In this document: positions 5,909 to 46,057 of the stretch, piece by piece
Position numbering within the stretch: position 1 is the first letter of the stretch
Layout of the letters: every line of letters starts with the position of its first letter
IMG/VR virus record: IMGVR_UViG_3300022699_000502
Location: 1 to 64,000 of that record
DNA length: 64,000 bases
Reading direction: 5' to 3' (one strand)
DNA from: a virus
Lineage: Duplodnaviria; Heunggongvirae; Uroviricota; Caudoviricetes
The notes under the pieces: generated by a model
Databases searched by the model: none
Told to the model about the DNA's origin: nothing
The model's input: only the letters and a program-made list of their open reading frames with translations
Made by a program: the position numbers and the translations under genes

Positions 5909-6205
5909 TCACATTGCTAATATTGACTCACACACATATACCGTATTCCCAATGTTTACGGGGATAGCACCTACTATCTCCCTCAACATATCATAATCGC
6001 ATTTCCTAACATCAACAATCTTATTTTCGTAAGTATTATCGATGTCTCGTTCAATAACTGCGCTGGGAATGCGATCATTAAATGTCATAATAGAGAATAT
6101 ATATTCTCTAATTCTCATCAAATACCGTCCCGACCCAATTTTCCTATATTTTCTCATTAATATACCACAGGTCTTGTATTTATAATGTCGGATGGTTCCA
6201 ACCAA
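5909..6205 (-). CDS. hypothetical protein (98 aa)
   Basis: coding-strand ORF. Confidence 0.4.
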   Translation of the reverse strand: MVGTIRHYKYKTCGILMRKYRKIGSGRYLMRIREYIFSIMTFNDRIPSAVIERDIDNTYENKIVDVRKCDYDMLREIVGAIPVNIGNTVYVCESILAM

Positions 6206-7821
6206 CCTCTTCTAGCTATACCTACTCCAAATCTTCTAACAAAATCCATCATAGTTGTTCCGTGTGCATCGCTCCCGATCTCATACATAACATCGGTATC
6301 CATTATCATCTCATCGTTCAAGTCTAAGCGTTGAGGTAAACTATTTATTTCAAATATAATTCCATAATCTTCATGGAATGTATTTATATGTTTTGGTTGT
6401 AATACCTCATTTCCTTCTCTTTCACCTATAACTCTACCAGTTGGATGAGCCAACACATCTATAGAGTTTGTGCTGAAAGCATTATGTAACCTCTCAACTA
6501 TATTTTCATCTGTTATGCTTTGATGGACTGCGCCTATAACATAATCATAGTAGTCCAACCAATCCTCTTTATATATGTCACCGTCTTTCATTATATCAAC
6601 TTCAACACCCTTCAATATCTTTATGTCATGTTTATCGTTCAAATCATCTATGAGCATATTCCTATTTATTATGTCGTTCTCGTCCATATCTCCTAACGGT
6701 CTTTGATGGTCTGCTATACCAACATATTCATAATCTAACTCTATTGCTTTACTCACAATCCCTGGTATATCTACGTTTCCATCTGAATAATCGCTATGTA
6801 TATGAATATCACCCATTATATCTGATTCTTTAACCAAATCTGGTAAGTTATTGTTGAGTGCTGCTTCATGTTCACCTCTATCATCGCGTAATTCAGGTGG
6901 TATATATTCGAATCCCAATTTTTCGTATATTTCCCGTTCCTTTTCACCTGCAATCTTTTCATCGGTTTCCATGTCTGCCATCCTATATTCGTTCAGTGTC
7001 CAACCATACTGTTGTGCTCTCTTCCTCACCTTTATGTTGTGTTCTTTGCTTCCTGTAAAATATTGGATTGCTGCACCCCAACACTCAGGCTCTATGACCC
7101 TCACATCTATTTGTAGACCGTTATCCAACATAACGGAAGTTTTGGTGTCACCGCTTACCAATACCTTCATGACATCCTCGTAATTTTTAGTGGCTTCCAT
7201 AATCGTATCGCTATCGCCTGTTGTCAATATATCTATGTCACCGACTGTTTCCTTGCGCCTTCGTAGACTGCCCACAATTTCCAATTTATTCGTCTTTTCA
7301 GATAAAAATGAGGCCAATGAATGTGCATTATTCCACGCATCATCTAACCTATATCTGTCTGAAAATTTACGTAAATATTCAATTCCTTCTAATATATTCT
7401 GTTCAGTCTTTTTACCAAACCCGCTTAAATTCCTGATTGTACCTGATTGTGCGACTTCTTCTAAATCATCTAACGACTCAACACCTAACTCGTCATATAA
7501 TTTTTTGACGGCTTTTTTACCAATACCTTGTACCTTCTTCACTTCTTTAAGCCCATCCGGTATCTCTTCCTTCAAATTTTCTAAATATTCGCAAGTACCG
7601 CTTTCAATTATTTGTTCTATTTTTGAAGCAGTACTATCACCAACACCTGGGATCTCTTTCAAATTACCTTTCTCATACAGTTCCCTTATGTCCCAATCAG
7701 TGCTACTTATATTCCTAGCTGCATTTCTATACGCCCTTATCTTATATTGGTTTTTATCCAATATCTCCATCAATTCAACTATCTCATAAAATTTATCCGC
7801 TATTTCTTTCTTATTCATCAT
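6157..7821 (-). CDS. family X DNA polymerase (Pol beta-like core with C-terminal PHP domain)
   Basis: 554 aa; helix-hairpin-helix motifs IPGVGDSTASKI and GIGKKAVKKL; nucleotidyltransferase GSLRRRKETVGDIDIL; PHP motifs HIHSDYSDG, ADHQ, LAHP, GSDAHG. Confidence 0.85.
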   Translation of the reverse strand: MMNKKEIADKFYEIVELMEILDKNQYKIRAYRNAARNISSTDWDIRELYEKGNLKEIPGVGDSTASKIEQIIESGTCEYLENLKEEIPDGLKEVKKVQGIGKKAVKKLYDELGVESLDDLEEVAQSGTIRNLSGFGKKTEQNILEGIEYLRKFSDRYRLDDAWNNAHSLASFLSEKTNKLEIVGSLRRRKETVGDIDILTTGDSDTIMEATKNYEDVMKVLVSGDTKTSVMLDNGLQIDVRVIEPECWGAAIQYFTGSKEHNIKVRKRAQQYGWTLNEYRMADMETDEKIAGEKEREIYEKLGFEYIPPELRDDRGEHEAALNNNLPDLVKESDIMGDIHIHSDYSDGNVDIPGIVSKAIELDYEYVGIADHQRPLGDMDENDIINRNMLIDDLNDKHDIKILKGVEVDIMKDGDIYKEDWLDYYDYVIGAVHQSITDENIVERLHNAFSTNSIDVLAHPTGRVIGEREGNEVLQPKHINTFHEDYGIIFEINSLPQRLDLNDEMIMDTDVMYEIGSDAHGTTMMDFVRRFGVGIARRGWLEPSDIINTRPVVY

Positions 7822-8195: not shown

Positions 8196-8453
8196 CTAAT
8201 CATTAATTATCGTCTCCGCACTTATACTAATTTTAATTTTGAATCCTGGTAAGTTGTTACCTATATGTTCCCATTCACACAACGAGCGCCCTTCCCAAAA
8301 ATACTGAACGTCTTCCGCCATATTCAAATTGTATGCACACGTATATATGTCACCTTCTTCGAATACAATTGCTGCAAACGTATATGGGTGACACATCTGC
8401 TCTATCTCATACATATTATCCCAAATCATATTTCTGTTTATCAAGATACCCAT
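8196..8453 (-). CDS. hypothetical protein (85 aa)
   Basis: coding-strand ORF. Confidence 0.4.
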   Translation of the reverse strand: MGILINRNMIWDNMYEIEQMCHPYTFAAIVFEEGDIYTCAYNLNMAEDVQYFWEGRSLCEWEHIGNNLPGFKIKISISAETIIND

Positions 8454-8551
8454 CGATTATTCTTTCTTTAGTTAACGACGGTTCAGTATAATATGTAACA
8501 CCTCTTAGTTTCGTGCTATTGACCCACAAAATCAATTCCCAGCGCCCTTTA

Positions 8552-8785
8552 TCAATAGCTATCATTAATACCACTACCTATGTCTTCGGGCGATACAAGT
8601 CTATAATGCTCCATCTCACGTTCCCACAATTTTTCAGCGTCTGGTTCAGTGATATTACCACCATATAACTCGTTATCATTTATCCATATAACTACAAAAC
8701 CGTCATGTTCGAATAACCTCTTACAACTACCGAAATCATTTTCAATACGATAAACCAATAATTTCATATTACCACTTCGAACCAC
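8552..8785 (-). CDS. hypothetical protein (77 aa)
   Basis: coding-strand ORF. Confidence 0.4.
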   Translation of the reverse strand: MVRSGNMKLLVYRIENDFGSCKRLFEHDGFVVIWINDNELYGGNITEPDAEKLWEREMEHYRLVSPEDIGSGINDSY

Positions 8786-9008
8786 TTATAAGTTCAAATG
8801 CACTATTTTCACAAGTCCTATATAGATGTATACCGAAATCTACACCACCCCCATACAACATATCACCGTAACGCCATATCGTTACAGGCGCTTTCAGTTT
8901 TTGCCACGATCCATATTCTCCATTTCTTTTACTCACCAATAGTTTCATCCAGTTTCCTCCATTCCCCATCACAAGCAATCGTCCAAGATTTGAATGCATG
9001 AATACCAT
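8769..9008 (-). CDS. hypothetical protein (79 aa)
   Basis: coding-strand ORF. Confidence 0.35.
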   Translation of the reverse strand: MVFMHSNLGRLLVMGNGGNWMKLLVSKRNGEYGSWQKLKAPVTIWRYGDMLYGGGVDFGIHLYRTCENSAFELISGSKW

Positions 9009-9183
9009 GTAATCCGAATTCTCTCATCAATTTAGGAGGTACTCTATCATCGAAAGGAAATATTGATACTGTGTCCTCCCTCCTAAATATAAGACATTTT
9101 CCATAATAAATTGATGTTATCATATGTGTGTCCTCATATTTAAAGGTTGTGGATACTGTCCATCTTCGTCCAATTATCCTCAA
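8929..9183 (-). CDS. hypothetical protein (84 aa)
   Basis: overlaps 8769..9008 by 80 nt; one of the two may be spurious. Confidence 0.3.
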   Translation of the reverse strand: MRIIGRRWTVSTTFKYEDTHMITSIYYGKCLIFRREDTVSIFPFDDRVPPKLMREFGLHGIHAFKSWTIACDGEWRKLDETIGE

Positions 9184-9300
9184 TATTTCCTTTTTTAACT
9201 AATTGTTTTCCCGCATAAATATCATCAAACATCCAACTATGAACATCTCCATCATATACCCAAATAATCTTATTAAAATTATGAGAATTAAAATTTACTA

Positions 9301-9489
9301 TCATATCGTTATCTCACACCTTTCCATTAGGAGTTCGCTACTATCATAATTTCCTTTATATATGTTCATCTTAATATCCTCCTTTCTTTTTTTATTAACT
9401 GCTCCTCCCCAATAAAAGTAGAATAATGCTTCACCCACCCTATAAATCCAGATGGTCTTACTAAGATTTCTTTTGAATGCATAAATCAT
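9301..9489 (-). CDS. hypothetical protein (62 aa)
   Basis: coding-strand ORF. Confidence 0.3.
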   Translation of the reverse strand: MIYAFKRNLSKTIWIYRVGEALFYFYWGGAVNKKRKEDIKMNIYKGNYDSSELLMERCEITI

Positions 9490-9491
9490 AG

Positions 9492-9677
9492 TTATATGTA
9501 CTCAATATCAAGACATTGTTGTATCTGTTTGTCAAACCTATCCGTGTTTTTTATTGTACGGATCACACGCTCTGGTTTATGATATGCGGTTTTCCTAAAA
9601 TATGCACCATAAACAGCGTTGTTAGCATACCAATAAACAACATAATAGTTATCTGATGTGTGTCTTCTTCCAATCAT
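9492..9677 (-). CDS. hypothetical protein (61 aa)
   Basis: coding-strand ORF. Confidence 0.3.
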   Translation of the reverse strand: MIGRRHTSDNYYVVYWYANNAVYGAYFRKTAYHKPERVIRTIKNTDRFDKQIQQCLDIEYI

Positions 9678-10147
9678 ATCATCAATTCTTGTCTATCAAG
9701 TTTATCCGTATGTTTTACCGTGTTACGTATTTTTTGATTCCAATCTAAGAAGATGGCACCGTACACCTCGTTATCTACGCGCCAAACCATACAGCAACAT
9801 CCATCGTATCTTTTAGTTAACTCGCACGATATCGTAGTCATGTTAACACATATACATCATAATCATACATATCCGATTCACGAATCCTATCCTTGAGTAC
9901 TTCATTTAGTTTTCCGGTGTAAAACGTTAAATATAGCTTGTTGTATGCATACCAACACACAACTTTATCATCCTTAAGCTTTAATCGACTTTTCATGTCG
10001 ATTCACACTTGTGATAATAGATATCTTTAGAGATTGACGTCTTCACGACACGCAACGCACTCCTCCCATCATCTTCACCGAAATATGCGCCATATATGAT
10101 GTCAGATACACGCCAATACACCATCCACCCATCATGATGCTCCCTAA

Positions 10148-10333
10148 TTAATATGATGAATCACCATACACTAAATATATGTCGTCATATGCGTCAATGT
10201 GGTTCCAATCCCAATCATTGGTATTATCTATATCGATATCAAAAGTATTTGATGTTGTTTGCCCAAACACAATTGAACTACCGTCTCTAACCACATCAAC
10301 CAAGCTAATGATTCCCCTGCTCACTTTTATCAT
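10148..10333 (-). CDS. hypothetical protein (61 aa)
   Basis: coding-strand ORF. Confidence 0.3.
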   Translation of the reverse strand: MIKVSRGIISLVDVVRDGSSIVFGQTTSNTFDIDIDNTNDWDWNHIDAYDDIYLVYGDSSY

Positions 10334-10498
10334 AATAGTCTCTCCTCACTATCGAAATCTCCGTCTAATATCCTATCTTTTATTTCTTGTGTTATACCAT
10401 CATAATTGAATCCTATTCTGACCGCATTGTCCGTTACCCACATAACTAAGTGATCCGAGTAGTATGCTCCATGTGTTTTCTTCATCGCCGAAACCTCG

Positions 10499-10726
10499 TT
10501 ACTCTTCATGTATTTTAGTCATCTCATCTGTAAATTCTGAGACCTTCGATACAATATATATAGTATCCATAGTTTGGCTTTCATTAAGTTCTATTCCAAC
10601 TTTATCAAGCGATTTCTGTACTAAACTTAACGGGGTAGCATCCTGTGCTTCCGTCTCTTGTATAACCTCATATACTATATCTACGATCTCATTCCATCTT
10701 TTATCCATATTATCACCTTTGTCCAC
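10499..10726 (-). CDS. hypothetical acidic protein (75 aa)
   Basis: coding-strand ORF. Confidence 0.4.
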   Translation of the reverse strand: MDKGDNMDKRWNEIVDIVYEVIQETEAQDATPLSLVQKSLDKVGIELNESQTMDTIYIVSKVSEFTDEMTKIHEE

Positions 10727-10786
10727 AACCTTTATATAATCCTACGTATTTATTTATGTGCCAACCACACAAAAATAGTGAGGGGT

Positions 10787-11086
10787 TCACCCCTTTACTA
10801 TTTTACATGTGAGCTCGCGTAATACATCGACTGTTCTCTCATCATATTTTTCGTTAGTATCAATCACTATCTTCTTTATTTTAGATTGTCTAATCGGTAT
10901 ATAACCTTCCATCTTTTCGCCATCATAATGCCGTTCAGTCCTTAAATGCACCTCACCGGTGACTGGGTTTAACCTTAGCCCATTCCCTGGCCTCGTCCAA
11001 TGATCTGTTTGCATAGCTAACTTACCTTTATATTCAACATATTTGTTGCGTTCGCTATTACGACTCCTAACTTTTTCTTTAAACAT
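10787..11086 (-). CDS. hypothetical protein (99 aa)
   Basis: first gene after promoter copy 3; HWTRPGNGLRLNPVTGEVHL segment not assigned. Confidence 0.45.
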   Translation of the reverse strand: MFKEKVRSRNSERNKYVEYKGKLAMQTDHWTRPGNGLRLNPVTGEVHLRTERHYDGEKMEGYIPIRQSKIKKIVIDTNEKYDERTVDVLRELTCKIVKG

Positions 11087-11113
11087 TCTTTTTTCCTCCT
11101 ATTATATTATTAT

Positions 11114-11160
11114 ATATTGTTCATCCTATATAAATATTATGGGAATGTTAGGGAAGGGGA
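11114..11160 (-). promoter_or_regulatory. conserved viral promoter element copy 3
   Basis: tattgttcatcctatataaatattatgggaatgttagggaagggg, with a tandem second half-copy gggaagggg. Confidence 0.6.
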
Positions 11161-11339
11161 GGATCTAATGCGTAATCCTCGCCATTAGACGAAACAATTG
11201 TTTCACCGTCTCCATCCATTATAATTATTATCCTGTCTTTAACCATTATATACCCGCCAGTTATTTTGAGAACGAGTTTTGATTTATGCCAATGGAAAGA
11301 TTGTCCTTCCTTCCACGCGCCAACGTTAATTCTTATCAT
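11148..11339 (-). CDS. hypothetical small protein (63 aa)
   Basis: coding-strand ORF immediately downstream of the 167-aa and radical-SAM genes. Confidence 0.35.
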   Translation of the reverse strand: MIRINVGAWKEGQSFHWHKSKLVLKITGGYIMVKDRIIIIMDGDGETIVSSNGEDYALDPPLP

Positions 11340-11839
11340 ATGAAACGACCATTAACATCATATCCATTTTCATCACACCACTCCAAGAAATCACCTGTAC
11401 CGCCACCTCGTGTCTCAATCGCCGAATTAAATTCACTACATATTTTTGCGAAATCTTCATAGTCCTCTGTGTTCCATTCATTTATTTGGAACCCGACGCT
11501 GTCGTCATTTGGTAAGAAAAACCACACTCCGGTGTTCTCAACACCAACTACCGTTGTTATGAAGGCAGGTGGTACACTTATTGCCGTGTCTTTTACTTCC
11601 AATCCGTCTTTACTAAAATCGATATCTTCAATATCGATGATTTGTTTAATAGGAATATGTGACAACTTATCGACATTCATCCCAATATCTTCGAGTTTAT
11701 CGCATTTTGGCCAATACTCGACCTTTAGTTTAGCATCCAATAAGTCTAATGCTCTTTTTAATACTGCTTTTTTCGATTCCGCATCTGTATATGGGAGCCT
11801 CGTAACTATTTCACTACAATTCGGTTGATCAACCATCAT
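11336..11839 (-). CDS. hypothetical protein (167 aa), translationally coupled to the radical-SAM gene
   Basis: start overlaps the radical-SAM gene's stop by 11 nt; acidic; function not recognised. Confidence 0.5.
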   Translation of the reverse strand: MMVDQPNCSEIVTRLPYTDAESKKAVLKRALDLLDAKLKVEYWPKCDKLEDIGMNVDKLSHIPIKQIIDIEDIDFSKDGLEVKDTAISVPPAFITTVVGVENTGVWFFLPNDDSVGFQINEWNTEDYEDFAKICSEFNSAIETRGGGTGDFLEWCDENGYDVNGRFI

Positions 11840-12629
11840 ATTTCCTCCTTTTTATATATGGACAACTAAATCTTTCATCTAATTGAACGTCTTTAAGTTT
11901 AGTGATGTCGGATGGTTCATCGAGATGTACTAATATGGAGTCGGCAAAACTGCACCCTCTTACATCACCCGTTTGGTCTATACACACAGTTGATGTGCCA
12001 TAATGACATGGTGATCCCCAATGATTTCCCATATTATCTAATAGTTTTGAACTGCATTCATCTACATATACGTTTTCTAATTTCTCGAAGTATCCGAATT
12101 CCCAATACTTGTCCAAAATATCCACTGTTGGTTCGTTTTTCATCGATAATAAATATACTCTATCTGCCCGATTAGATATACTATCAACGATGTTTACTAT
12201 GTTATCAAATACGCCGTCCGTCATCAATATGTTCGCACCTATACGTGAATCGCTAAACATCCGTGCTTGCTTGATGGTTTCTAAATACTCATCCATATTC
12301 CATTTGTAGTCATCGTATGATATACTGATCATGTCGATGTTAGCACTGCATTCTATCAGTTCATCTAAATACTTACCGTTCGTCGTCAAATTCATTTGTA
12401 CTCCATTCCGCTTCCCTTTTGCTGCCATCTTATGCAATAAATCACCTTTGTTTTTTAGTACTTCACCGCCGCCCACGGCTATCTGTTTCGTGTATGGCGC
12501 CACTTCTTCTACTAACTGCATCCAAAACTCATCCGGCCGACCCTCTTTGTTTTCTGCATAACAAAACGGGCAATCTAAATTGCAATCATTTGTTATATGC
12601 ATACTTACTACTTCAAAATTCATTTCCAT
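11829..12629 (-). CDS. radical SAM enzyme with C-terminal auxiliary Cys cluster (SPASM/Twitch-like)
   Basis: 266 aa; CNLDCPFCY CxxxCxxC cluster; glycine-rich VGGGE SAM-binding motif; C-terminal GSPCHYGTSTVCIDQTGDVRGCSF extra cysteines. Confidence 0.75.
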   Translation of the reverse strand: MEMNFEVVSMHITNDCNLDCPFCYAENKEGRPDEFWMQLVEEVAPYTKQIAVGGGEVLKNKGDLLHKMAAKGKRNGVQMNLTTNGKYLDELIECSANIDMISISYDDYKWNMDEYLETIKQARMFSDSRIGANILMTDGVFDNIVNIVDSISNRADRVYLLSMKNEPTVDILDKYWEFGYFEKLENVYVDECSSKLLDNMGNHWGSPCHYGTSTVCIDQTGDVRGCSFADSILVHLDEPSDITKLKDVQLDERFSCPYIKRRKYDG

Positions 12630-12849
12630 CTTTTATCACATCATTTAATTTAATTTTGTATAACGTTGGTAATTCCCAAACTAAAAACTGGCTACCTTCC
12701 GATACATGTTCGTTTATTATCTCAACAACTGTGTCTTCTACTATATGATTGTAATCGGCAAGCCTTGCAACGAATAAAGTATCATCAATTATCATAACTG
12801 ATATTTTGTTAAGAGATAAACCCCTCATTTTATCTTCCTCAATTTCCAT
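12613..12849 (-). CDS. hypothetical protein (78 aa), tandem paralog of 13075..13317
   Basis: shared pattern ISVMIIDDTLFVARL / ISTLIIDGDIYIIRIL and C-terminal DVIKD. Confidence 0.45.
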   Translation of the reverse strand: MEIEEDKMRGLSLNKISVMIIDDTLFVARLADYNHIVEDTVVEIINEHVSEGSQFLVWELPTLYKIKLNDVIKDGNEF

Positions 12850-12863
12850 AGTCGTCCAGCCTC

Positions 12864-13085
12864 TTAACCATATTCTTTAATGCTGCTTAATTCGCATTCC
12901 CATCCTTCCGGCATCTTCCATACTCTCCATTCCGGATCGGTTTTACCGCGTACGATAGACATCGTGGCCTCATATGGAGTCATATCCATATCTCTTCTGA
13001 ACGTAGCAAAATACACTTCGCGACCAAACCTGATCACTGTATTTTTACACTCATTTATCCATTCCCTGTGCTTCCTATACTTCAT
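12864..13085 (-). CDS. hypothetical protein (73 aa)
   Basis: coding-strand ORF. Confidence 0.4.
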   Translation of the reverse strand: MKYRKHREWINECKNTVIRFGREVYFATFRRDMDMTPYEATMSIVRGKTDPEWRVWKMPEGWECELSSIKEYG

Positions 13086-13317
13086 CCTTTATCACATCTT
13101 GTAAATATGTCACGCTAAAGTCTTGGAGACGCCAAATTATAAACCCCCTCGCTTTTTCTAAGTGCTTATCCATAACTTCAACTATTGATTGCGATGTCAC
13201 ATTATTATGTGCTTGGGAAAAAGGTAAGATACGTATAATATATATGTCACCATCGATTATCAGTGTTGATATTTTTAAATCCTCGAATAGTTTTAGGTCA
13301 TGTTTCTTTATTCTCAT
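13075..13317 (-). CDS. hypothetical protein (80 aa), paralog of 12613..12849
   Basis: see 12613..12849. Confidence 0.45.
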   Translation of the reverse strand: MRIKKHDLKLFEDLKISTLIIDGDIYIIRILPFSQAHNNVTSQSIVEVMDKHLEKARGFIIWRLQDFSVTYLQDVIKDEV

Positions 13318-13538
13318 AATAGTTCAGCCACCAACACATCTTCAACTTCTTCAGGCCATTGTAATTTCCTAAATTCTTCTTCGGCTTCCTCTTCAGTATC
13401 ATAATCGATAATCACTTTAGTTTGCTTATGTGCTTCACCATCATTTAGCTCATCCAACACGTTGATCGTAACTGTATTGTGAGAGCCGTCGGCATCTAAT
13501 ATGATTTCGTATCTACCTAATGATTTAGCACTGTACAT
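13314..13538 (-). CDS. hypothetical acidic protein (74 aa)
   Basis: coding-strand ORF. Confidence 0.4.
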   Translation of the reverse strand: MYSAKSLGRYEIILDADGSHNTVTINVLDELNDGEAHKQTKVIIDYDTEEEAEEEFRKLQWPEEVEDVLVAELL

Positions 13539-13881
13539 ACTTCATATATCTCTCCCAACAATCCGGACACCTATCCGTTAGTTCCTGAAATGCCTCATCT
13601 CTATCTATTTCGCCTAAAGTTGGGTCATAAAAGTAAGGTAACGGTGAATTATGATTATACCCTCTCCTTTCCATCTCTATCACTAACTCTTCATGCCGGC
13701 TTCTTATATTATGCACTTCAACTAAACCGTTTTCTATATACTCCTTCAGTTTTCTCTCCAAATCATCATCTGCTTTCTGTATTGTCCCGACAAACATATG
13801 GAGTTCGTTATGTTCGTCTAACAAATGTTGTCTACACATAAATCTTGGGTTTACCATCCACATTCTCATAAGCATCATCAA
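13525..13881 (-). CDS. pyrimidine-dimer DNA glycosylase-like (T4 endonuclease V family)
   Basis: 118 aa; N-term VNPRFMCRQHLLDEHNELHMFVG parallels T4 DenV [24 protein letters not shown]. Confidence 0.55.
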   Translation of the reverse strand: MMMLMRMWMVNPRFMCRQHLLDEHNELHMFVGTIQKADDDLERKLKEYIENGLVEVHNIRSRHEELVIEMERRGYNHNSPLPYFYDPTLGEIDRDEAFQELTDRCPDCWERYMKYVQC

Positions 13882-13914
13882 TAATACAATTGTTATGTTA
13901 TTTAAATGTTATTG

Positions 13915-14100: not shown

Positions 14101-14654
14101 TCATATTCTTTATTTTATCTATTATTTTTCTTACCATTTTCTCACCATTTGAACCTAATATGTTATACTATTTAAATGTTGTGGACTATATCTTCCATAT
14201 GTCTTGAAGTCATGGTTTGCACCCCCATCCCAATAAAACACGATGTTATCATTACGATACACCGCTGATTTTAAGATCGTATCGTAGTGGTGTGCTTTAA
14301 TCACCATAAACACATCCTAATTTACCGTCATATACGTATTTTGTTGTTGTACTACCACCCATGAGGCGAGCCTCCACTATATAACAATTTGGTCCGATAT
14401 TTTGTTCGAACTCTATTTTAATTACGTCGTGTACTTTTATTGTTATCATATCGGTAACCCCTACGGTTCCTTTGAATACATAATAACTTCGTTATTGTCT
14501 ATTATTACTGAACTGATAACACATATGTAATTTTCATTTTACCAAACTACAAATGTAAAATCTGTATTATCTGTTACAAGAACTACATATATATTTTCAT
14601 AATATGCGTATTCGATTTTTTGTGGTGACTTGCATTCTGTGGTTATCATGATTA

Positions 14655-23381: not shown

Positions 23382-23553
23382 CATCTTCCTCCAAATCTGT
23401 CATTGTTACACTTTTTATGTTCCTCATGGGATAATATATTAGTCCATCATCAAAGTATATTTCTAGGTTTTGCTCCGACATATGTACGATTTCTTCTGTT
23501 GTTATCTCTTCCATATCTCCATTCATAAAATGGATTGTTACTTTTGTTTTCAT
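23374..23553 (-). CDS. hypothetical mini-protein (59 aa; hand-translated)
   Basis: MKTKVTIHFMNGDMEE...; ATG overlaps the ligase gene's stop as ATGA. Confidence 0.35.
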   Translation of the reverse strand: MKTKVTIHFMNGDMEEITTEEIVHMSEQNLEIYFDDGLIYYPMRNIKSVTMTDLEEDDG

Positions 23554-24437
23554 TTAAATGCCTCCCTATTTATAACTTGTCTTAATACTTCTTCGCACCT
23601 AGTCCCCACCATATTCCTTATTTCTTTGAAGTTTAGTTCCCAATTATTCCATATTATTTCGTCCCACTCTTCACTCCATATGTCTTTGTATACCGTATCC
23701 ATGAGTTGCGGCATTATCTCCATCTGTATGTTTCTGTTGTATTCGTCTCTTATCTTATATATGTTTTTTTCTATGCGGTGGTTAGTTACGTATTTGCTTA
23801 CGAATTTTTCGTTGTCGTCTGCTGCCCTGCCTTTTGGTTTCCCGTAAACTTTATCCCTTTTCTCAAAAAATTCTTCAGCTCGTTTTTTACTGAAGAACTG
23901 CGTACCATAACACTTTAATACCACTCCTTCTGCCTTACCATCTCTATATTCACTGTCTGGAACCTCTATGTCCTTTGGTGATACATGTCCTACAATAGTT
24001 ATTAAGGGCACCATATCAAAATTTAAGTCTTCAAATACTAACTGTTTTTTTGCATAACTTACAAATTGTTCATTTTCCTCGTCATATATGTCGAACCACA
24101 ACACATCAGGCATATTTTCCCAATCATACTCTAATGCATGCGGTACCATCTGTTCACCAAATAATGTTAAGTTATTATGTCCAAAATGTTCACATAATAT
24201 TTGTGACATCTCTTCAGGTGTTGTTTTGTTGTTAACATAATCTATTGTTTGCTGGAACTGTTCGCGATTACCGTTTAATCCAACAACGTTTCTACTCCTA
24301 AACAAAAAGCCATCGTTATTCAGTTTAACACCAACATTAGCACCATCCAACTTTTCTTCGATTATAACATCTCCAGAACCCTGTAAATTACTTATGTCTT
24401 CGCTCCCAAACTCACTTATTTTTGGATACTTCTTCAT
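23550..24437 (-). CDS. ATP-dependent polynucleotide ligase (nucleotidyltransferase superfamily; RNA-ligase-like)
   Basis: 295 aa; motif I EEKLDGANVG (KxDG); motif IV AEGVVLK (EGxVxK); small size and KLDGxN favour an Rnl2/Rnl3-like RNA ligase over a replicative DNA ligase. Confidence 0.7.
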   Translation of the reverse strand: MKKYPKISEFGSEDISNLQGSGDVIIEEKLDGANVGVKLNNDGFLFRSRNVVGLNGNREQFQQTIDYVNNKTTPEEMSQILCEHFGHNNLTLFGEQMVPHALEYDWENMPDVLWFDIYDEENEQFVSYAKKQLVFEDLNFDMVPLITIVGHVSPKDIEVPDSEYRDGKAEGVVLKCYGTQFFSKKRAEEFFEKRDKVYGKPKGRAADDNEKFVSKYVTNHRIEKNIYKIRDEYNRNIQMEIMPQLMDTVYKDIWSEEWDEIIWNNWELNFKEIRNMVGTRCEEVLRQVINREAFK

Positions 24438-27403: not shown

Positions 27404-27475
27404 TTGCGGGTGGAGGAATCGAACCTCCGACTACCGGGTTATGAGCCCGGTGCCCTACCACTAGACCAACCCGCA
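27404..27475 (-). tRNA. tRNA-Met (anticodon CAU), initiator-like
   Basis: folds by hand as a 72-nt cloverleaf; 7-bp acceptor stem (U1:A72), U8, A14, D-loop GG, anticodon stem CCGGG/CCCGG, loop CUCAUAA with U33 and A37, 5-nt variable loop, T-arm GGAGG-TTCGATT-CCTCC; three G:C pairs next to the anticodon loop; no encoded CCA. Confidence 0.85.
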
Positions 27476-27477
27476 CA

Positions 27478-27771
27478 TTATCCTATAACATTTTTTATGG
27501 TGAATTCCCATCCACCCTTTCCGTACGTCCCTTCAACACTTACTTCCATCACATCATCTAAAGGCACCACAACTATGTCCGCCGTTATACCCTCATCATA
27601 GATGTCACCTCGTCCATCATTCTTAAAGTCATCAGCAACCATTGAACCACTATTGAACGTACTCGCATCGATATGTAGTTTGTTTATTGCATCTAATCTG
27701 TTTTTTGCCTCGATTGTACCTAAAATTTCGACTCTACCAAATTTTTTGATTCCAACCATATATTCCATCAT
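27478..27771 (-). CDS. hypothetical protein (97 aa)
   Basis: coding-strand ORF between the tRNA and aRF1. Confidence 0.4.
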   Translation of the reverse strand: MMEYMVGIKKFGRVEILGTIEAKNRLDAINKLHIDASTFNSGSMVADDFKNDGRGDIYDEGITADIVVVPLDDVMEVSVEGTYGKGGWEFTIKNVIG

Positions 27772-28754
27772 TTCACCTCATACCTCAATATTAGGCCGTG
27801 TTCGAATGTATCCTTGAAGTTTTTCCCATAATCCGTTGATGTATCTATATCTATTATGTTCGTTCCATATTTTTCAGCTAACTCTTTATGTTCGTCGTTC
27901 GTAGTTAGTAGTGTGTCGCCGGCTCCCATCCGTAATACCCTCTGTACGTCCTGCCCGTACGTCGCCATATCTTGTGTTATCTTCTTTTTGAACTCCTCTA
28001 TTTTTTCTTTCTGTTTACCTTTGTGTTTCTCTTCTATTGTTTTATGTGCCTTGTCCGTTAGTTCATTTAGGCCGTTTATGTTAGTGTACTCCACTGTATA
28101 TGTGTCTTGTGCTCCTATGTCGCAGTTTTTTAGGAAGTTTGTGGGGGTTAGGCCGGTCCCTCCCACAAACACGTAGTCGTGTGAGCCTATCAAATGCTTT
28201 GCTTTCTCACATACTTTCTTGTAGTATTGTTTTGCGCGCTCCTCTATGTCTCTTTCGAACCTTTGCGCCGATTGTCCACCCTGGCTATGTTTACTTGGTA
28301 CTAATGAATTTATGTGTTCTAATTCCATCGTACTATTATTAACGTGTTCACCTATGACGGCTTCTTTCCGGTCTAACACTATAAGACCTATCGATATTTT
28401 GTCTTTGTTGAGTACATCTAGTAGGGGTTGTACATAAAATGTGTTATCACAATAATACTTGTTTGGTACCTCACCTTCCACTTCGTATACCTCACATACT
28501 TCTTGTTTATCGACATCTCCTGAGAATACTACCAAAGATGTATCTAAATTGTTTATTCCTTTTAAAACGCGAATAATACGCTTTAGAGCAGCTTTAACGT
28601 TTCCCCTCGTCTCCTTACTCTTGATGTTATCGGATTTTGCGAGCTGTTGTTGTAATTTACTCTTCATCGCATTAATGTTATGGTCTTTATTTATGTATAC
28701 ACTTATCAGTTCCGTGTTGTTACCCCTCATGTCTTTTAGGTCCTCTACATCCAT
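27768..28754 (-). CDS. class-I peptide chain release factor, aRF1/eRF1 family
   Basis: 328 aa; N-term LKDMRGNNTELISVYI (compare eRF1 LEAARGNGTSMISLII); NIKS motif; YYCDNTFYVQPL (eRF1 YxCxxxF YLCDNKFH); GGQ motif HSQGGQSAQRFER. Confidence 0.8.
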   Translation of the reverse strand: MDVEDLKDMRGNNTELISVYINKDHNINAMKSKLQQQLAKSDNIKSKETRGNVKAALKRIIRVLKGINNLDTSLVVFSGDVDKQEVCEVYEVEGEVPNKYYCDNTFYVQPLLDVLNKDKISIGLIVLDRKEAVIGEHVNNSTMELEHINSLVPSKHSQGGQSAQRFERDIEERAKQYYKKVCEKAKHLIGSHDYVFVGGTGLTPTNFLKNCDIGAQDTYTVEYTNINGLNELTDKAHKTIEEKHKGKQKEKIEEFKKKITQDMATYGQDVQRVLRMGAGDTLLTTNDEHKELAEKYGTNIIDIDTSTDYGKNFKDTFEHGLILRYEVK

Positions 28755-29474: not shown

Positions 29475-30422
29475 TTACTGGTCGGCCTCGTCGAGTGCAC
29501 CACTATCTTGTGATGTCGTTGGATCATACGTGTTGTTCGTATCGGTTTGTTCGTTTGGTATGGTTCCGTTTCCTATATCTAATATCAGACTTTGTCCACC
29601 TTCAGTTATGACCCACCTAACGTTACTTTCAGGATCCCTTAGTGCTTGTATATACCTAAGTGCCTTTATGTATTCCATCGTCTCTTGTGTCATATTTTCG
29701 GATTGATATGACAATATTTCTATCGCTTCGGCTTGACCTTCTGCTAACTGAACTGTTGCGTTAGCTTCACTGGCGGCTCTCACTCTAATCTTTTGCGCTC
29801 TTGCTTCTTCCGCATCCAACTCGTATTGTGCTGCCTTAACATCTATTCGAGCAGCTTCACGTTTTTCTGCAGCTGCCAACACGGCATTCGGCATATCAAC
29901 ATTCCTTATACGTACACTTTGTACATATAAATTCTCTATGTTCAATGCTTCTTTAACTGCAATCTGTACATTCTCATTGAATTTGGCTCTATTCTGGTTC
30001 AGTTCTAATCCCGTTAAGTTCATTTTGTTTGCCACCAATGTTATTTGTGATTCCAATTCCATCTTTATCTTTTCCTTGTATTGTGGGTTATTTACCCTTA
30101 AATCACCGACACTCTTCTCATCAATATTGTATTGTATCTGGTATGTGACCGGTACATTATAACCGTCATCCGTTATAACTTGTGTATCAACTTTTATGTA
30201 TTGTGTGTTATACCTGACCATTTCCGTCTCCAAAAATGGATTCTTAAAGTTGAATCCTTCATCGTATTGTGAACCGATTCCGCCGAACCCACTGACTCCT
30301 ACAGCTTTGTGTCCAGCTGGCACTATCACTACACTCATCGACAGTAGTACTATTAGTGCTACTACTATTATTCCTATTCCGACCATCAGGCCTTTTCTAA
30401 ATCCTTCATCTTTGCTTACCAT
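29475..30422 (-). CDS. SPFH/band-7 (stomatin/prohibitin/HflKC-like) membrane protein
   Basis: 315 aa; N-terminal transmembrane segment GLMVGIGIIVVALIVLLSMSVVIV then a band-7 core, then a long coiled-coil with AAEKREAARIDVKAAQYELDAEEARAQ. Confidence 0.7.
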   Translation of the reverse strand: MVSKDEGFRKGLMVGIGIIVVALIVLLSMSVVIVPAGHKAVGVSGFGGIGSQYDEGFNFKNPFLETEMVRYNTQYIKVDTQVITDDGYNVPVTYQIQYNIDEKSVGDLRVNNPQYKEKIKMELESQITLVANKMNLTGLELNQNRAKFNENVQIAVKEALNIENLYVQSVRIRNVDMPNAVLAAAEKREAARIDVKAAQYELDAEEARAQKIRVRAASEANATVQLAEGQAEAIEILSYQSENMTQETMEYIKALRYIQALRDPESNVRWVITEGGQSLILDIGNGTIPNEQTDTNNTYDPTTSQDSGALDEADQ

Positions 30423-37363: not shown

Positions 37364-37804
37364 TTGCGTATTATTTATATTATGCGATGGACTCCAGAAG
37401 ACGAAAAAGAGTTAATGGATTGGTATGAGCTGTGTGGTAGTGATATCCCGAGTTTGTTAAATAAAGGGTATACTAAGAGTCAGATTAGGAGTAAGGCGTT
37501 CAGGATGGGATTATCAGAGAAGAATAAGTGTGGTCCTGGAAAATGTGATTTGACGGAACAGCAACTACTAGATATGTACCATGGTGAATACATGACAATC
37601 GAGCAGATTGCCGAGAAGACTGGGTGGGCCGAACAAACCATCTATAGGAAGATGCACGAGTATGAAGTGCCGTTAACCGGCAAGTTTCGGTATACAAAAT
37701 GTAGTGAGTGCGGGAAACGTATTAAGGCGGAGCGCGCTGATATATTGGATGATGATGCGGTTTTATGTGATATGTGTAAGGTTATGCGTAATTTAGGTAT
37801 CTAG
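37364..37804 (+). CDS. HTH-repeat DNA-binding protein with C-terminal zinc ribbon
   Basis: 146 aa; repeated ~40-aa HTH-like units ending RMGL / HEYEV, resembling the N-terminal repeats of the adjacent LAGLIDADG protein; CSECGKR ... CDMC. Confidence 0.5.
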   Translation: MRIIYIMRWTPEDEKELMDWYELCGSDIPSLLNKGYTKSQIRSKAFRMGLSEKNKCGPGKCDLTEQQLLDMYHGEYMTIEQIAEKTGWAEQTIYRKMHEYEVPLTGKFRYTKCSECGKRIKAERADILDDDAVLCDMCKVMRNLGI

Positions 37805-38872
37805 AGACTTTTCAAATTGTCTTTTTTTACGTTCTAAATACGTTTGTGCATCATCATATAAATATTCGTAAATATTCCTTTTATCGGTTTGTTTTCCGTA
37901 ATGTACAACGTAGTTTTCCTTTGATGGGTGTTTATATATGTCGTTCTTCGAATTTATTATAGTACCAATTATTTCGTTTACGTCTTGCATAAGTTGACGT
38001 GACCCGCATATCGTGAAACTATTACCGCTAATACTGCCGTCTGCATCAAACAATCCCCTTATGAAATGTCTGTGGTATTTTTCGGGTATATCTGGCATAT
38101 ATGTCTTATGTGACTTACACGGAACGACACCATATTTTTCTAAATCCTCAACTATCTTCTTTCGGGTTATCGATAAAGCAAATCCGTCCTTACCCGATTC
38201 GTGTATGCTGTGCGACGAACTCATTGCGTTTCTTAGTTTCAAAAGATGGTCGGTATCTTTCGCGTTCAATGATACAGTTAAACTATATCCCGTACCACCT
38301 TCTCCTGTTTTACCTATGTTTCCATCACCAACTATGAACCCCAACCAATATGCCTTTTCAGAACTATCCATCTCTTCGAAATAATCTTCGTCTACTTCTT
38401 TATATGAGTACTTTGTGTTCAGCCCATACTTCTTCAGATTCCTATAGACTGTATGCGGCGAAATATTGAGTGCATCCGCAATTTCCTGTTGTGTCATATC
38501 CTTATCATGGTACATTGTGTTTAGCATATTTTCCGTCGAATCGTAATCATTCAAGCTAGTTCTACATAATCCCATATCCTTCAAATAATTCGATATTGTT
38601 GATGTTGAAACCGAGAAAACCGAAGCAATTTTTTCTCGCGACAGTCCTTCATCAATATACATCCGTTTTAACATATCCTTATCTAATTCTTCTTGTACTC
38701 TCGTTTTGTTTTCGGACCAATCAGTTCGTTCTTCTATTAACCCAAACTTGATTATATGTTCATTGATATGCGATTTATCTACGTCTAGCAGACCCGCAAT
38801 GCGCTTGTGTGAATACTTTTTGTCTACGTACAAGTTCCGCAAAATCCGCTTCAATAACTGTTCTGCATCCAT
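37793..38872 (-). CDS. free-standing LAGLIDADG homing endonuclease with three N-terminal HTH repeats
   Basis: 359 aa; two LAGLIDADG motifs LGFIVGDGNIG and GLFDADGSIS; N-terminal repeats (each ending K-F/M/Y-GL). Confidence 0.75.
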   Translation of the reverse strand: MDAEQLLKRILRNLYVDKKYSHKRIAGLLDVDKSHINEHIIKFGLIEERTDWSENKTRVQEELDKDMLKRMYIDEGLSREKIASVFSVSTSTISNYLKDMGLCRTSLNDYDSTENMLNTMYHDKDMTQQEIADALNISPHTVYRNLKKYGLNTKYSYKEVDEDYFEEMDSSEKAYWLGFIVGDGNIGKTGEGGTGYSLTVSLNAKDTDHLLKLRNAMSSSHSIHESGKDGFALSITRKKIVEDLEKYGVVPCKSHKTYMPDIPEKYHRHFIRGLFDADGSISGNSFTICGSRQLMQDVNEIIGTIINSKNDIYKHPSKENYVVHYGKQTDKRNIYEYLYDDAQTYLERKKRQFEKSLDT

Positions 38873-43524: not shown

Positions 43525-44017
43525 ATAAAATTAGTGTTTATTTTTATAAAAATAAAATTTCAATAGGTTTATATGTAAAGTCTGCGTTAATTAAAAAAAA
43601 GAAAAAAAAAAAGAGGTCGGCTGGGCATACCTCTCAAAAAGGTTTGTAGGTTAATTACCTATGAATCTTGAGATAAAAATAAGCAAAATTGTAGGTAATA
43701 ATTTAAATCCTTATCTAATTTATTAAGTAATTTCATAATAACTTTATTTGGTCGGTATTACTGACTAAATAGAAATTAAACATTAAACTATCATACAGTT
43801 ATTAACTACCCTTAAAATAGGTTTAAACAATATTCAAGAGTAAATTAATACATACTTTTAGTATGCTTAAACATTAATCCTAATAAATTAGATAATAGGT
43901 TTTTTAGAATTTTTTTGGATAAACCAAATATAAAAAATCAATAATTCTGTATGTATGAATTTAAGTAGTATATACAGAATTAAAAAACCATTAAAATATA
44001 TATGTGAGGCGAATAAA

Positions 44018-44500
44018 ATGAAAAAAGAAGATATAGATAAATGGATAGAAGAAGCGAAAATAACAACAAACAACAAACAAAATAGTCTAAATATGAATGT
44101 AAGGGCAGATAGGTTATTATACCTATTTATCGGAGATAAAGAAAATAGGAAAATCCTTTATGGGAATGGATTACAGCAAAAAAGGATAAGAGATAGTCTG
44201 GTAAAATTAGGAATAGAAGAAGATAGTATAACCAGTCAGACCATTAGGAAACAAATGAGAAAAAACGCAGTAATAGATTATAACTGTAAAGAAACTAATG
44301 GAGATAATCCAGAAAATAAAACAAACAAACCTATATGGGCTAATAAAAGAAATTTCATTTATTACAGAGTTAATCCATATTATGTTAAGGAAAATATGGA
44401 TTTAAGGAAAGTCAGTAAAGTTGAAGTCAGTAATACAGTTAAGTCTATCATTAAATTCATTAAAAACCATCGACCAAAATTATATAATCTAAAGAAATAA
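44018..44500 (+). CDS. basic K/N-rich protein P1 of the AT-rich island (160 aa from the GAGG-linked ATG)
   Basis: GAGG 8 nt upstream of the ATG at 44018; very AT-rich codons; possible HTH near RIRDSLVKLGIEEDSITSQTIRKQMRKN. Confidence 0.5.
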   Translation: MKKEDIDKWIEEAKITTNNKQNSLNMNVRADRLLYLFIGDKENRKILYGNGLQQKRIRDSLVKLGIEEDSITSQTIRKQMRKNAVIDYNCKETNGDNPENKTNKPIWANKRNFIYYRVNPYYVKENMDLRKVSKVEVSNTVKSIIKFIKNHRPKLYNLKK

Positions 44501-44514
44501 AAACCTTTTATTTT
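44499..44514 (+). terminator. intergenic oligo-T element AAAAACCTTTTATTTT
   Basis: repeated after P1, P2 and P4; followed by TTTTTATATAAA TATA-like box. Confidence 0.35.
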
Positions 44515-44540
44515 CTTTTTTTATATAAATGGTGATAAAA

Positions 44541-44930
44541 ATGAATTTAGAAGATATGTATAAATTAAACATAAAATTCAATAATAGATATAGACTTAAG
44601 AATACAATTAAGAAAATAAAAAACAATAGTGAATACAGTAATTATGAGAAAATAAAAAGAATCAGTAGGTTAAAAAAGACCACAAAATTACATAATTGGT
44701 ATAAGTTATTTTCTTATTTTATAAAAGATAAGAAAATAATAACTGATACCGATTTAATTTTTACTGCATACAGATATATAACCAAATATACAGATATAAA
44801 AATAACCACAGTAATAAATAAATTTAATGAAATAGAATCATCATTAAAAACTAAATGGATAAAAGAAAAATCATTTTGGGTTAATATACAAAATGATGAA
44901 TTTTATCTTATCAGAAGTCTATGGAAATAA
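44541..44930 (+). CDS. basic K/N-rich protein P2 (129 aa)
   Basis: GGTGATAAAAATG start context. Confidence 0.5.
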   Translation: MNLEDMYKLNIKFNNRYRLKNTIKKIKNNSEYSNYEKIKRISRLKKTTKLHNWYKLFSYFIKDKKIITDTDLIFTAYRYITKYTDIKITTVINKFNEIESSLKTKWIKEKSFWVNIQNDEFYLIRSLWK

Positions 44931-44935
44931 AATAA

Positions 44936-44950
44936 AAACCTTTTATTTTT
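44936..44950 (+). terminator. intergenic oligo-T element AAAAACCTTTTATTTT
   Basis: second copy. Confidence 0.35.
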
Positions 44951-44994
44951 TATTTTTATATAAACTAAAAAACCTTTAATTTAGATGTGATAAA

Positions 44995-45423
44995 ATGATA
45001 TATGAATTTAATAGACCAGAAGAAATAAATTTAAAACCCTTTAAGGTTATTTTCAATAAAATAACCCTATCTGAAAATAGAAATCATTTAAAGATAAAAC
45101 TATCCTATTGGGATAATTGCCAAAGGTTAAGAGAAATAAATAAAAGGAAAAAAGAAACTGACTTATATATAAAAATACCAAAGAAATTAACTGATGATAT
45201 TAAGGTAAATATCAATAAAACAATAAACCTAAATTTAGAATTGGAATTAATCCATACAGTAATTAAAAATATAAAATATTTAATTTTACATAAAAATAGA
45301 AATTACAGTAAATATCATTATACAAAAATACAGAAAATTATAAGATTTTTAGAAGATATAGAAAATAAAATTTCCAGAAGGATAGATGTTAAACCATTAA
45401 ATGACTTATTTGGTGGTGAATAA
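44995..45423 (+). CDS. basic K/N-rich protein P3 (142 aa)
   Basis: GATGTGATAAAATG start context. Confidence 0.5.
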   Translation: MIYEFNRPEEINLKPFKVIFNKITLSENRNHLKIKLSYWDNCQRLREINKRKKETDLYIKIPKKLTDDIKVNINKTINLNLELELIHTVIKNIKYLILHKNRNYSKYHYTKIQKIIRFLEDIENKISRRIDVKPLNDLFGGE

Positions 45424-45424
45424 A

Positions 45425-45790
45425 ATGATAAAAAATACTTCTCTTATTGGATTAGGGAAAATAGTACATTTAAGAATAAACCAAATAGTAACAGATATAT
45501 CAGAAAATACAATTTATTTAGAATTTAATAAACATAATAGTGATAAAAACCATACTGATACAATAAGAATAATTGAAATAGATAAAAATAACATTAAAAC
45601 CAATAAATATAATGACCCAATTACTGAAATAACAATAAATGATGATACATTTATTAAAATAACATTTAATCAGTTATATAGTTGGATAGATACAATAATA
45701 TCATTTATTACGATAAATAATCAGATAGAGTTAAAAAGAAAATTAGAGAAAATACAGTTATTCTTAAATGAATATATAGATTATATCTAA
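45425..45790 (+). CDS. K/N/I-rich protein P4 (121 aa from the GGTGA-linked ATG)
   Basis: GGTGGTGAATAAAATG start context; abuts the P3 stop. Confidence 0.5.
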   Translation: MIKNTSLIGLGKIVHLRINQIVTDISENTIYLEFNKHNSDKNHTDTIRIIEIDKNNIKTNKYNDPITEITINDDTFIKITFNQLYSWIDTIISFITINNQIELKRKLEKIQLFLNEYIDYI

Positions 45791-45804
45791 AAACCTATTT
45801 TTTT
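45789..45804 (+). terminator. intergenic oligo-T element AAAACCTATTTTTTTT
   Basis: third copy (variant). Confidence 0.3.
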
Positions 45805-46057
45805 TATTATATTTTTTTGAGAATTTTTATTGGAATTTTTATATATAAATTAATTAATCCTTAATATCTATTATCCTATTTTCTATCTTAACATATAGGT
45901 TATAGATTTATCAAAATTAGGTTATTAGAAGTCTTATAGTGGGGTATATTACCGATTGAATTAATTGATTAAGGGTTAATAACATTTAGACTTTTTAGAT
46001 ACAATATAAAAATTATGATAATAGAAAATATAAATCTAATTTTGTGTGTTTTATCAT

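Follow-up and report, generated by a model that had tools for sequence, protein, structure and literature searches.

A compact Twitch-type radical SAM enzyme of a divergent tailed virus is encoded with a protein bearing a short N-terminal PNCSE tag

Introduction

Radical S-adenosylmethionine (SAM) enzymes with a SPASM or Twitch domain have been described chiefly as enzymes that mature short bacterial peptides or act on cofactors and nucleotides. Here we describe a pair of overlapping genes in the first 64,000 nucleotides of the viral record IMGVR_UViG_3300022699_000502 (Caudoviricetes); this whole stretch, hereafter the window, is part of the 137-kb Joint Genome Institute (JGI) metagenome contig 3300022700|Ga0248669_100020, the remaining ~73 kb of which lie outside our data. 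The pair encodes a radical SAM enzyme of 266 amino acids (aa) and a 167-aa partner that carries the motif P-N-C-S-E (the tag) close to its N-terminus, and it represents one instance of a cassette that is carried by viruses and mobile elements, that appears to be undescribed, and for which we infer a chemistry below. The fold and the cluster type of the enzyme are of already known kinds. What sets the cassette apart is the linkage of a compact Twitch enzyme, lacking the recognition element (RRE) of enzymes that mature peptides made by the ribosome and then modified post-translationally (RiPPs), to protein families that share only a nine-residue N-terminal Cys tag. Neither the compact RRE-less architecture, nor the three-Cys Twitch site, nor an N-terminal P-N-C-S-E tag on diversifying families, nor carriage by viruses and mobile elements across archaeal and bacterial lineages, was found in the libraries and literature searched, and the searchable literature held nothing relevant on the PNCSE motif or on viral Twitch radical SAM systems.

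The logic of the proposed system parallels that of the anaerobic sulfatase-maturating enzymes (anSMEs), in which one radical SAM enzyme recognizes a short conserved Cys/Ser motif close to the N-terminus on several different proteins and modifies the Cys or Ser. The anSME motif is C/S-x-P/A-x-R, as against P-N-C-S-E-x-V-x-R here, the tagged proteins are not sulfatases, and anSME, at ~370 aa, is larger than the 266-aa enzyme. Thioether-forming maturases such as CteB, PapB, the Tte1186/SCIFF maturase and SkfB, which are among the closest relatives of the enzyme in both sequence and fold, likewise combine a radical SAM core with a C-terminal SPASM/Twitch auxiliary cluster and are encoded together with Cys-containing substrates, often several paralogues. 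A SPASM domain follows the pattern CX9-15GX4C-gap-CX2CX5CX3C-gap-C, its seven Cys serving two auxiliary clusters, and a Twitch domain is a truncated form with one cluster (PMC6231123). The full SPASM domain of anSME holds two fully ligated clusters, whereas in the Twitch [4Fe-4S] cluster of MoaA, which is ligated by three Cys, an iron is left open and binds the substrate, and the Aux I cluster of CteB binds a Cys of its peptide (PMC6231123). In PapB and Tte1186, a substrate Cys or selenocysteine (Sec) directly contacts the cluster iron before the C-S bond is formed (PMC10177961).

The cassette resembles the RiPP systems in that Cys-containing open reading frames (ORFs) with a shared conserved sequence are co-encoded with the enzyme, one to four per cassette. 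It differs from those of the thioether-forming RiPP maturases in several respects: the enzyme has no RRE and a single Twitch cluster with three Cys; its presumed substrates are proteins of 72-281 aa, at least one of them a confidently folded domain; what is conserved is a short tag at the very N-terminus, not a leader joined to a core peptide; the genes reside on viruses and integrated elements; and every curated maturase model falls far short of its cut-off.

Results

Radical SAM enzyme and its family

An earlier note on this DNA, made from the sequence alone, had described the 266-aa product as a radical SAM enzyme with extra C-terminal Cys reminiscent of SPASM/Twitch auxiliary clusters, and every sequence feature that it named is present where it was placed (Table 1). 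The Pfam Radical_SAM profile (PF04055) scored 38.6 bits against a gathering threshold of 29.5, so that the radical SAM motif is not a chance resemblance and the identity of the enzyme as a radical SAM protein is confirmed. The predicted ligands of the SAM-binding cluster are followed directly by a Tyr (C16-N-L-D-C20-P-F-C23-Y), and the C-terminus reads PC208HYGTSTVC216IDQTGDVRGC226SF ... SC256PY.

A word-indexed search returned only two close relatives of the enzyme, with 74% and 38% identity, and an exhaustive profile search recovered 51 cluster representatives at E<1e-30, mostly of 250-300 aa and aligning over their full length. In an alignment of 40 enzyme sequences, from which all conservation figures given here were taken, exactly six Cys are invariant (C16, C20, C23, C208, C226 and C256), together with T82, S102, S104, K164, D190, S227 and F228. 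The C-terminal pattern C-X12-G-X4-C occurs in 36 members and its looser form C-X9-15-G-X4-C in 37, and the second SPASM half, CX2CX5CX3C, occurs in none of the 40; the window enzyme also had no match to the SPASM model PF13186. Just three Cys lie beyond residue 150 in 15 of the 40 members, and there is no fourth conserved C-terminal Cys. Since the hairpin motif and a later Cys are present and the second SPASM half is missing, the enzyme is best described from its sequence as a Twitch-type protein with a predicted three-Cys auxiliary site. The SPASM/Twitch resemblance put forward earlier therefore stands for the CX12GX4C motif and the later Cys, as Twitch and not as SPASM, and falls for C216 in CHYGTSTVC, which, like C192, is not conserved among the 40 members. 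No RRE (PqqD-like) leader-binding domain was found; the radical SAM core begins at residue 7, and no other domain was detected.

Two family members (P0084 and P0092, ~670 aa) are interrupted directly before the GGE motif by an intein of the LAGLIDADG homing-endonuclease type.

Partner gene in the window

The partner gene begins inside the enzyme gene, with the TGA of the latter at 11829-11831 and its own ATG at 11837-11839, and its Shine-Dalgarno sequence is spaced 4 nt from the first partner ATG and 7 nt from the second. Read from this arrangement, the enzyme and the 167-aa partner are translationally coupled, as the earlier note had proposed. The N-terminus of the partner is MMVDQPNCSEIVTR, and its tag, P6-N-C8-S-E10-I-V-T-R14, is the sole such motif in the window. 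The protein had no match in Pfam, NCBIfam, PHROG, PADLOC, PDB or BFVD. It contains four Cys (C8, C46, C134 and C155), which might be a candidate metal site.

Both close relatives of the enzyme keep a downstream ORF in the same position and of the same size, and the products at all three loci share the N-terminal P-N-C-S-E. Clustering placed the window partner with tagged proteins of L001, L028, L034, L046, L047 and L048 in the third-largest body family, type C, whose 11 members (154-191 aa) come from seven or more viral contigs. The window partner aligns with other members over as many as 159 residues, with pairwise E-values reaching as low as 2e-9. A C-terminal GG(S/T)..F.EWC..NGY element is common to the type-C members, of which two paralogues stand in tandem upstream of the enzyme in L046 and likewise in L048. 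An early pairwise BLAST comparison had found no significant similarity between the bodies of tagged proteins outside the largest group; larger sampling then linked the window partner to its body family via intermediates.

The PNCSE tag and its protein families

A profile search recovered 61 proteins of ~170 aa (hereafter the main type), several of them from Thermoplasmatota metagenome-assembled genomes (MAGs), with the highly conserved motifs NPNCSEAVFRF, CAGLGDN, LNIGNNDI and RDCTCG. The window partner is significantly similar to the main type only in its first ~40 residues (12 bits with a hidden Markov model (HMM); global hhalign probability 42%). Searching with the N-terminal segment alone brought in more small tagged proteins (79-91 aa), which differ in their bodies and are encoded beside a family enzyme of 271 aa.

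We compared 125 different tagged proteins with a length of 70 aa or more. Not one of them lacks the Pro, Ser or Glu of the tag; 122 have Cys and three have His as the central residue, whose distance from the start is 6-12 residues in 121 of the proteins. The longer consensus reads L-N-P-N-C-S-E-A-V-F-R-F, with the general form (L)(N/Q)-P-N-C-S-E-x-V-x-(R/K). After removal of the tag, the bodies of these proteins, which range from 72 to 281 aa in full length, fell into 12 BLAST clusters. Several loci encode more than one tagged protein: two in L026, L028 and L030, three in L032/L033 and four in L034/L035.

In Planctomycetota, a His variant of the tag, QPNHSE, occurs beside the Cys type. The Planctomycetota MAG CAIUPP01 (among L016-L019) has three separate copies of the cassette, each consisting of a Cys-type tagged protein, then a ~185-aa His paralogue (QPNHSE, or a degenerate ADHRD in L019) and then the radical SAM gene. 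An ORF in L015 (3739..6336) had at first suggested an intein in the partner; this was rejected, as here the main-type C-terminal half continues a large unrelated ORF in the same frame and there is no tag, and the fusion probably represents the remnant of a gene or a chimera from assembly.

Genomic linkage of enzyme and tag

Cassettes consisting of the enzyme and one to four tagged proteins were found on tailed-virus contigs, in integrated elements of Thermoplasmatota and in Planctomycetota genomes. Approached from the tag, all of the ~25 first-round loci with a tagged protein also had the enzyme family, in either gene order: the enzyme comes before the tagged gene in the Thermoplasmatota loci and in the window, and after it in the Planctomycetota loci and some viral contigs. 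In all examined loci the main-type protein adjoins a family enzyme or lies within ~4 kb of one. The two genes are side by side in the Thermoplasmatota contigs L002, L004 and L006-L014 (with a phage-type integrase gene within a few kb in L004, L006 and L007), in the Planctomycetota MAGs L016-L019, where their order is reversed, and in the IMG/VR viral contigs L020-L022; L028 and L030, with the wider spacing, have both genes on the same viral or proviral stretch.

A control from the side of the enzyme covered 26 IMG/VR loci, in which full-length family enzymes scored at least 229 bits and other radical SAM proteins at most 69 bits. All five loci with a full-length family enzyme had one to four tagged ORFs directly upstream of it, and a tag within 5 kb on either side was found at none of the 21 loci of other radical SAM proteins. 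Scanning metagenomes with a back-translated DNA pattern of the tag gave at least 120 stretches, mostly short. Among the matches listed, the tag was at the N-terminus of an ORF in 105 of 120 stretches, two to four tags were present in 30, and the enzyme was found in 69, within 1 kb in 58 of these; where the stretch continued for at least 2.5 kb on both sides, the enzyme was present in 9 of 12 of the matches listed. No gene other than these two kinds was found to be conserved among the cassettes. These surveys show that the genomic linkage of enzyme and tag is strict and specific.

On the 146-kb contig Ga0373629_0000125 (L026), whose cassette contains two tagged proteins, an archaeal-type SAM synthetase gene (PF01941, 4041..5177) lies two genes upstream of the family enzyme.

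Comparison with curated models and solved structures

The best NCBIfam match of the window enzyme was viperin_w_prok (NF038283), which reached 53.1 bits against a cut-off of 180 and covered residues 7-112 only. Lower scores were obtained for StsB (39 bits, cut-off 625), the MoaA models TIGR02668 (29.2, cut-off 325) and TIGR02666 (24.5, cut-off 284), NrdG2 (TIGR02495; 28.5, cut-off 131.15) and N_Twi_rSAM (NF033640; 23.5, cut-off 170). The PFL-activase model TIGR02493 was matched by relatives only, at 22-28 bits against 231.75, and other family members stayed likewise far under the NCBIfam cut-offs. In PADLOC, pVip scored 54.7 bits, over the N-terminal half only (residues 7-118). Because all curated models remain far under their cut-offs, the enzyme can be placed, as far as sequence models tell, outside NrdG, PFL-activase, QueE, viperin, MoaA and the SPASM enzymes.

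A profile search of the PDB matched viperin (6b4c, 4e-15), SuiB, MoaA, SkfB, YydG/EpeE (7e-11) and CteB, with the viperin matches confined to residues ~7-165. The AlphaFold 2 (AF2) model of the enzyme was moderately confident, with a predicted local distance difference test score (pLDDT) of 64.5 and a predicted template-modelling score (pTM) of 0.71, and showed an alternation of strands and helices over residues 7-161. With this model, Foldseek ranked EpeE/YydG best (1.6e-10), then viperin-like enzymes, MoaA and the Twitch dehydrogenase SpeY. EpeE/YydG is a peptide-modifying enzyme of similar size that was solved with more than one [4Fe-4S] cluster; its identity to the window enzyme is 16-18%, the TM-score is ~0.5, and its type of substrate is different. 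EpeE needs a Cys as hydrogen-atom donor, whereas the family described here has no conserved non-ligand Cys that could serve in this way. MoaA, matched by both fold and profile, has the three-Cys architecture of the C-terminal cluster that is predicted for the enzyme. Viperin is not known to have an auxiliary cluster, and the Cys-containing C-terminal domain of the enzyme is unrelated to it.

Discussion

Interpretation of the cassette

On balance we lean towards the view that the enzyme is a virus-borne protein maturase acting on the tag. The tag is the only element common to the 12 body families, and the number of tagged genes varies from cassette to cassette, as does that of precursors in RiPP clusters. 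Furthermore, a Twitch site with three Cys predicts an open iron, for which the substrate contacts in MoaA, CteB, PapB and Tte1186 offer parallels, and the peptide-modifying enzymes EpeE/YydG, SuiB, SkfB and CteB are among the closest solved relatives. The linkage of enzyme and tag, seen from either side, the translational coupling in the window and the fact that the cassettes share no third conserved gene point the same way. The substrate would be the N-terminal PNCSE tag, and in the window the sole substrate would be the 167-aa protein. The invariant Cys of the tag may bind the open iron of the auxiliary cluster, and the 5'-deoxyadenosyl radical generated from SAM could then remove a hydrogen atom from a tag residue close by, leading to a post-translational modification in or beside Cys-Ser-Glu. 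The most plausible chemistries would be the formation of a thioether cross-link that lies in or close to C-S-E, and Cys oxidation.

Several points weigh against this view. The enzyme has no RRE domain. Its N-terminal half best resembles the nucleotide-modifying viperin and MoaA, and its C-terminal domain is poorly modelled, with pLDDT below 50 at residues 163-204 and 252-266. In the confident model of a main-type partner (pLDDT 91), tag residues 8-14 form the first beta-strand and leave only N-P-N-C free, unlike a flexible leader peptide. In three paralogues from Planctomycetota the Cys is replaced by His, and one of their relatives has a degenerate motif; judged from sequence, the Cys-to-His exchange would fit the role of a metal ligand at least as well as that of a substrate. 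Moreover, the SAM synthetase near the enzyme in L026 suggests a high demand for SAM, which is more typical of a catalytic small-molecule reaction.

Some of these points feed the main rival explanation, namely that the tagged proteins are accessory subunits, with the Cys or His of the tag serving as the fourth ligand of the auxiliary cluster or as a dock, and that the enzyme in fact acts on a small molecule or on a nucleotide, as MoaA does on guanosine triphosphate (GTP) and viperin on cytidine triphosphate (CTP). The different bodies would then be adaptors or downstream enzymes. Beyond the viperin and MoaA matches of the N-terminal half, the exchange of Cys for His, typical of metal ligands, and the neighbouring SAM synthetase, this explanation can draw on MoaA itself, which has the same three-Cys cluster architecture and works with a ~160-aa partner, MoaC. 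The main-type partner is moreover modelled as a folded domain, and its conserved polar loops CAGLGDN, LNIGNNDI and RDCTCG may mark an active site. The model of the tagged partner had no MoaC-like match, and no molybdopterin genes were found near the enzyme. We regard the accessory-subunit explanation as rather unlikely.

An enzyme that modifies nucleic acid or nucleotides, by QueE-type 7-deazaguanine synthesis or by repair of the spore-photoproduct-lyase type, next to an unrelated neighbour, would suit the viral setting, with the genes for a DenV-like glycosylase and PolX nearby. Such a function would leave the strict and specific linkage to tagged ORFs unexplained; there is no QueE model among the listed matches of the window enzyme and no QueC, QueD, FolE or DpdA in the window, and the 7-deazaguanine partners that the earlier note had suggested looking for were absent both from the window and from the annotation of 20.8 kb around the gene. 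We consider this explanation very unlikely. Even less probable is a glycyl-radical-enzyme activase of the NrdG/PFL-activase type, the assignment that the earlier note had named as speaking against its own reading, with the partner carrying the radical. The enzyme is small and weakly matches the NrdG2 and PFLA models, and the main-type C-terminal RDCTCG(I/N) loosely resembles RxCGY, the glycyl-radical motif of NrdD. Yet those matches are a small fraction of the cut-offs, the window partner has no RDCTCG-like C-terminal motif, and the conserved element is N-terminal and centred on a Cys, not a Gly. Neither NrdD nor any other large glycyl-radical enzyme is encoded in the window, whose only ORFs of more than 500 aa are PolX and a 2069-aa ORF in the rightward block with terminase and portal genes. 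The 63- and 78-aa ORFs, which flank the pair as described earlier and were then offered as possible peptide substrates in the manner of RiPPs, are small and tightly packed against it, with overlapping starts and stops. However, the 78-aa ORF belongs to a local family of paralogues, being related to the 80-aa ORF at 13075..13317 (28% identity, E 8e-9) and to ORFs in L001; the 63-aa ORF and a 99-aa ORF have no homologue in any other module locus; L001, whose enzyme is 74% identical, has a different gene immediately upstream of it; and none of the flanking small ORFs has the tag. They can thus be placed, from these comparisons, outside the module, and a role as substrates is extremely improbable.

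If the enzyme does modify the tag, the matured proteins could plausibly have a role in virus-host interaction, since the tagged proteins are diversifying, acidic and present in multiple copies in viral early-gene regions. A bolder and more doubtful extension is a 'tag-and-modify' system of viruses of anaerobic archaea and bacteria, in which the enzyme would modify the tag of fast-diversifying small acidic effectors, the modified tag would serve as a common warhead or anchor, and the bodies would provide target specificity in virus-host conflict. Candidate modifications would include a thioether ring, a formylglycine-like aldehyde or another reactive group, and such a system would be a protein-level counterpart of RiPP maturation. 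Modification of the tag would in itself constitute a new class of post-translational modification of viral proteins, would suggest a role for more than 100 'hypothetical' viral proteins, and would provide a short portable recognition motif of interest for protein engineering. A three-Cys cluster combined with an invariant substrate Cys could also serve as a minimal system for studying what auxiliary clusters do in radical SAM maturases, a matter of debate.

Viral setting and neighbouring genes

The products of the window include a large terminase, a portal protein, PolX, an RNA ligase and a DenV-like glycosylase. Since the large terminase is only ~26% identical to its best GenBank phage matches, and GenBank phages gave no match to the DNA of positions 10000-14000 and none to the enzyme protein, the source is a very divergent tailed virus. 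The window has a GC content of ~36%, unlike that of classical haloarchaeal viruses. Its proteome is acidic, with a median isoelectric point (pI) of 4.8, 17.1% D+E against 10.8% K+R, and 56% of the ORFs of at least 80 aa below pI 5, which is compatible with a salt-adapted host. The nearest relatives of the module are on Thermoplasmatota and other uncultured contigs, and further relatives occur in Planctomycetota and in one WOR-3 MAG; one related contig is labelled SMTZ1, which, going by the name only, we take to stand for the sulfate-methane transition zone, an anoxic sediment setting that would suit an oxygen-sensitive enzyme.

Table 1. Coordinates of the enzyme-partner pair, its motifs and other features of the window
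Feature	Position	Strand	Remarks
Radical SAM enzyme, Twitch-type	11829..12629	-	266 aa; PF04055 and family profile
CX3CX2C (C16 NLD C20 PF C23), predicted ligands of the SAM-binding [4Fe-4S] cluster	12561..12584	-	Invariant in family
GGGE (G53-E56; VGGGE context), SAM-binding 'GGE' motif	12462..12473	-	Near-invariant in family alignment
C208-X12-G221-X4-C226, first half of the SPASM/Twitch signature CX9-15GX4C (beta-hairpin auxiliary-cluster motif)	11952..12008	-	
C256 in conserved 'CPY', last invariant C-terminal Cys, presumed third auxiliary-cluster ligand	11862..11864	-	From alignment
Tagged partner, body family type C	11336..11839	-	167 aa; overlaps radical SAM stop codon
Tag of the partner	11798..11824	-	
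Overlap of enzyme TGA and partner ATG	11829..11839	-	11 nt
AGGAGG Shine-Dalgarno of partner	11844..11849	-	Inside last codons of radical SAM ORF
78-aa ORF	12613..12849	-	Overlaps neighbour
63-aa ORF	11148..11339	-	Overlaps neighbour
Tiny back-to-back ORFs	~8400..10510, 12613..13317, 14155..14449	-	43-84 aa
PolX polymerase with PHP domain	6157..7821	-	
T4 DenV-like pyrimidine-dimer glycosylase	13525..13881	-	PF03013, 58 bits
RNA ligase	23550..24437	-	phrog_548
tRNA-Met(CAT)	27404..27475	-	
eRF1/aRF1-like protein	27768..28754	-	328 aa; eRF1_1, eRF1_2 (69 bits), eRF1_3
SPFH/Band-7 (prohibitin-like) protein	29475..30422	-	PF01145, 70.5 bits
Homing-endonuclease-like gene	37793..38872	-	HNH/DNA-binding endonuclease, phrog_4645
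Low-GC stretch	~44000..46000		GC down to 21%
Homing-endonuclease-like gene	62637..63542	+	Six NUMOD3 repeats and HNH domain

Many of the tiny ORFs around the pair share the motif W-x-x-(D/N)-x-x-(V/I)-Y-G-(A/G)-x-F, which suggests a tandem family of paralogous small genes. The glycosylase, PolX and the RNA ligase constitute a set for DNA and RNA repair. The eRF1/aRF1-like protein has all three domains of these release factors, and the tRNA gene lies ~300 nt from its gene; a viral release-factor homologue beside a tRNA could serve the takeover of translation or the handling of stop codons. The dip in GC separates the leftward gene block, which extends to ~40 kb, where the GC skew also switches sign, from the rightward block that opens with the terminase and portal genes, and this stretch could be an origin or a regulatory region. 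The window also has two homing-endonuclease-like genes, one on each strand, and the gene for an SPFH/Band-7 protein lies in the viral early region.

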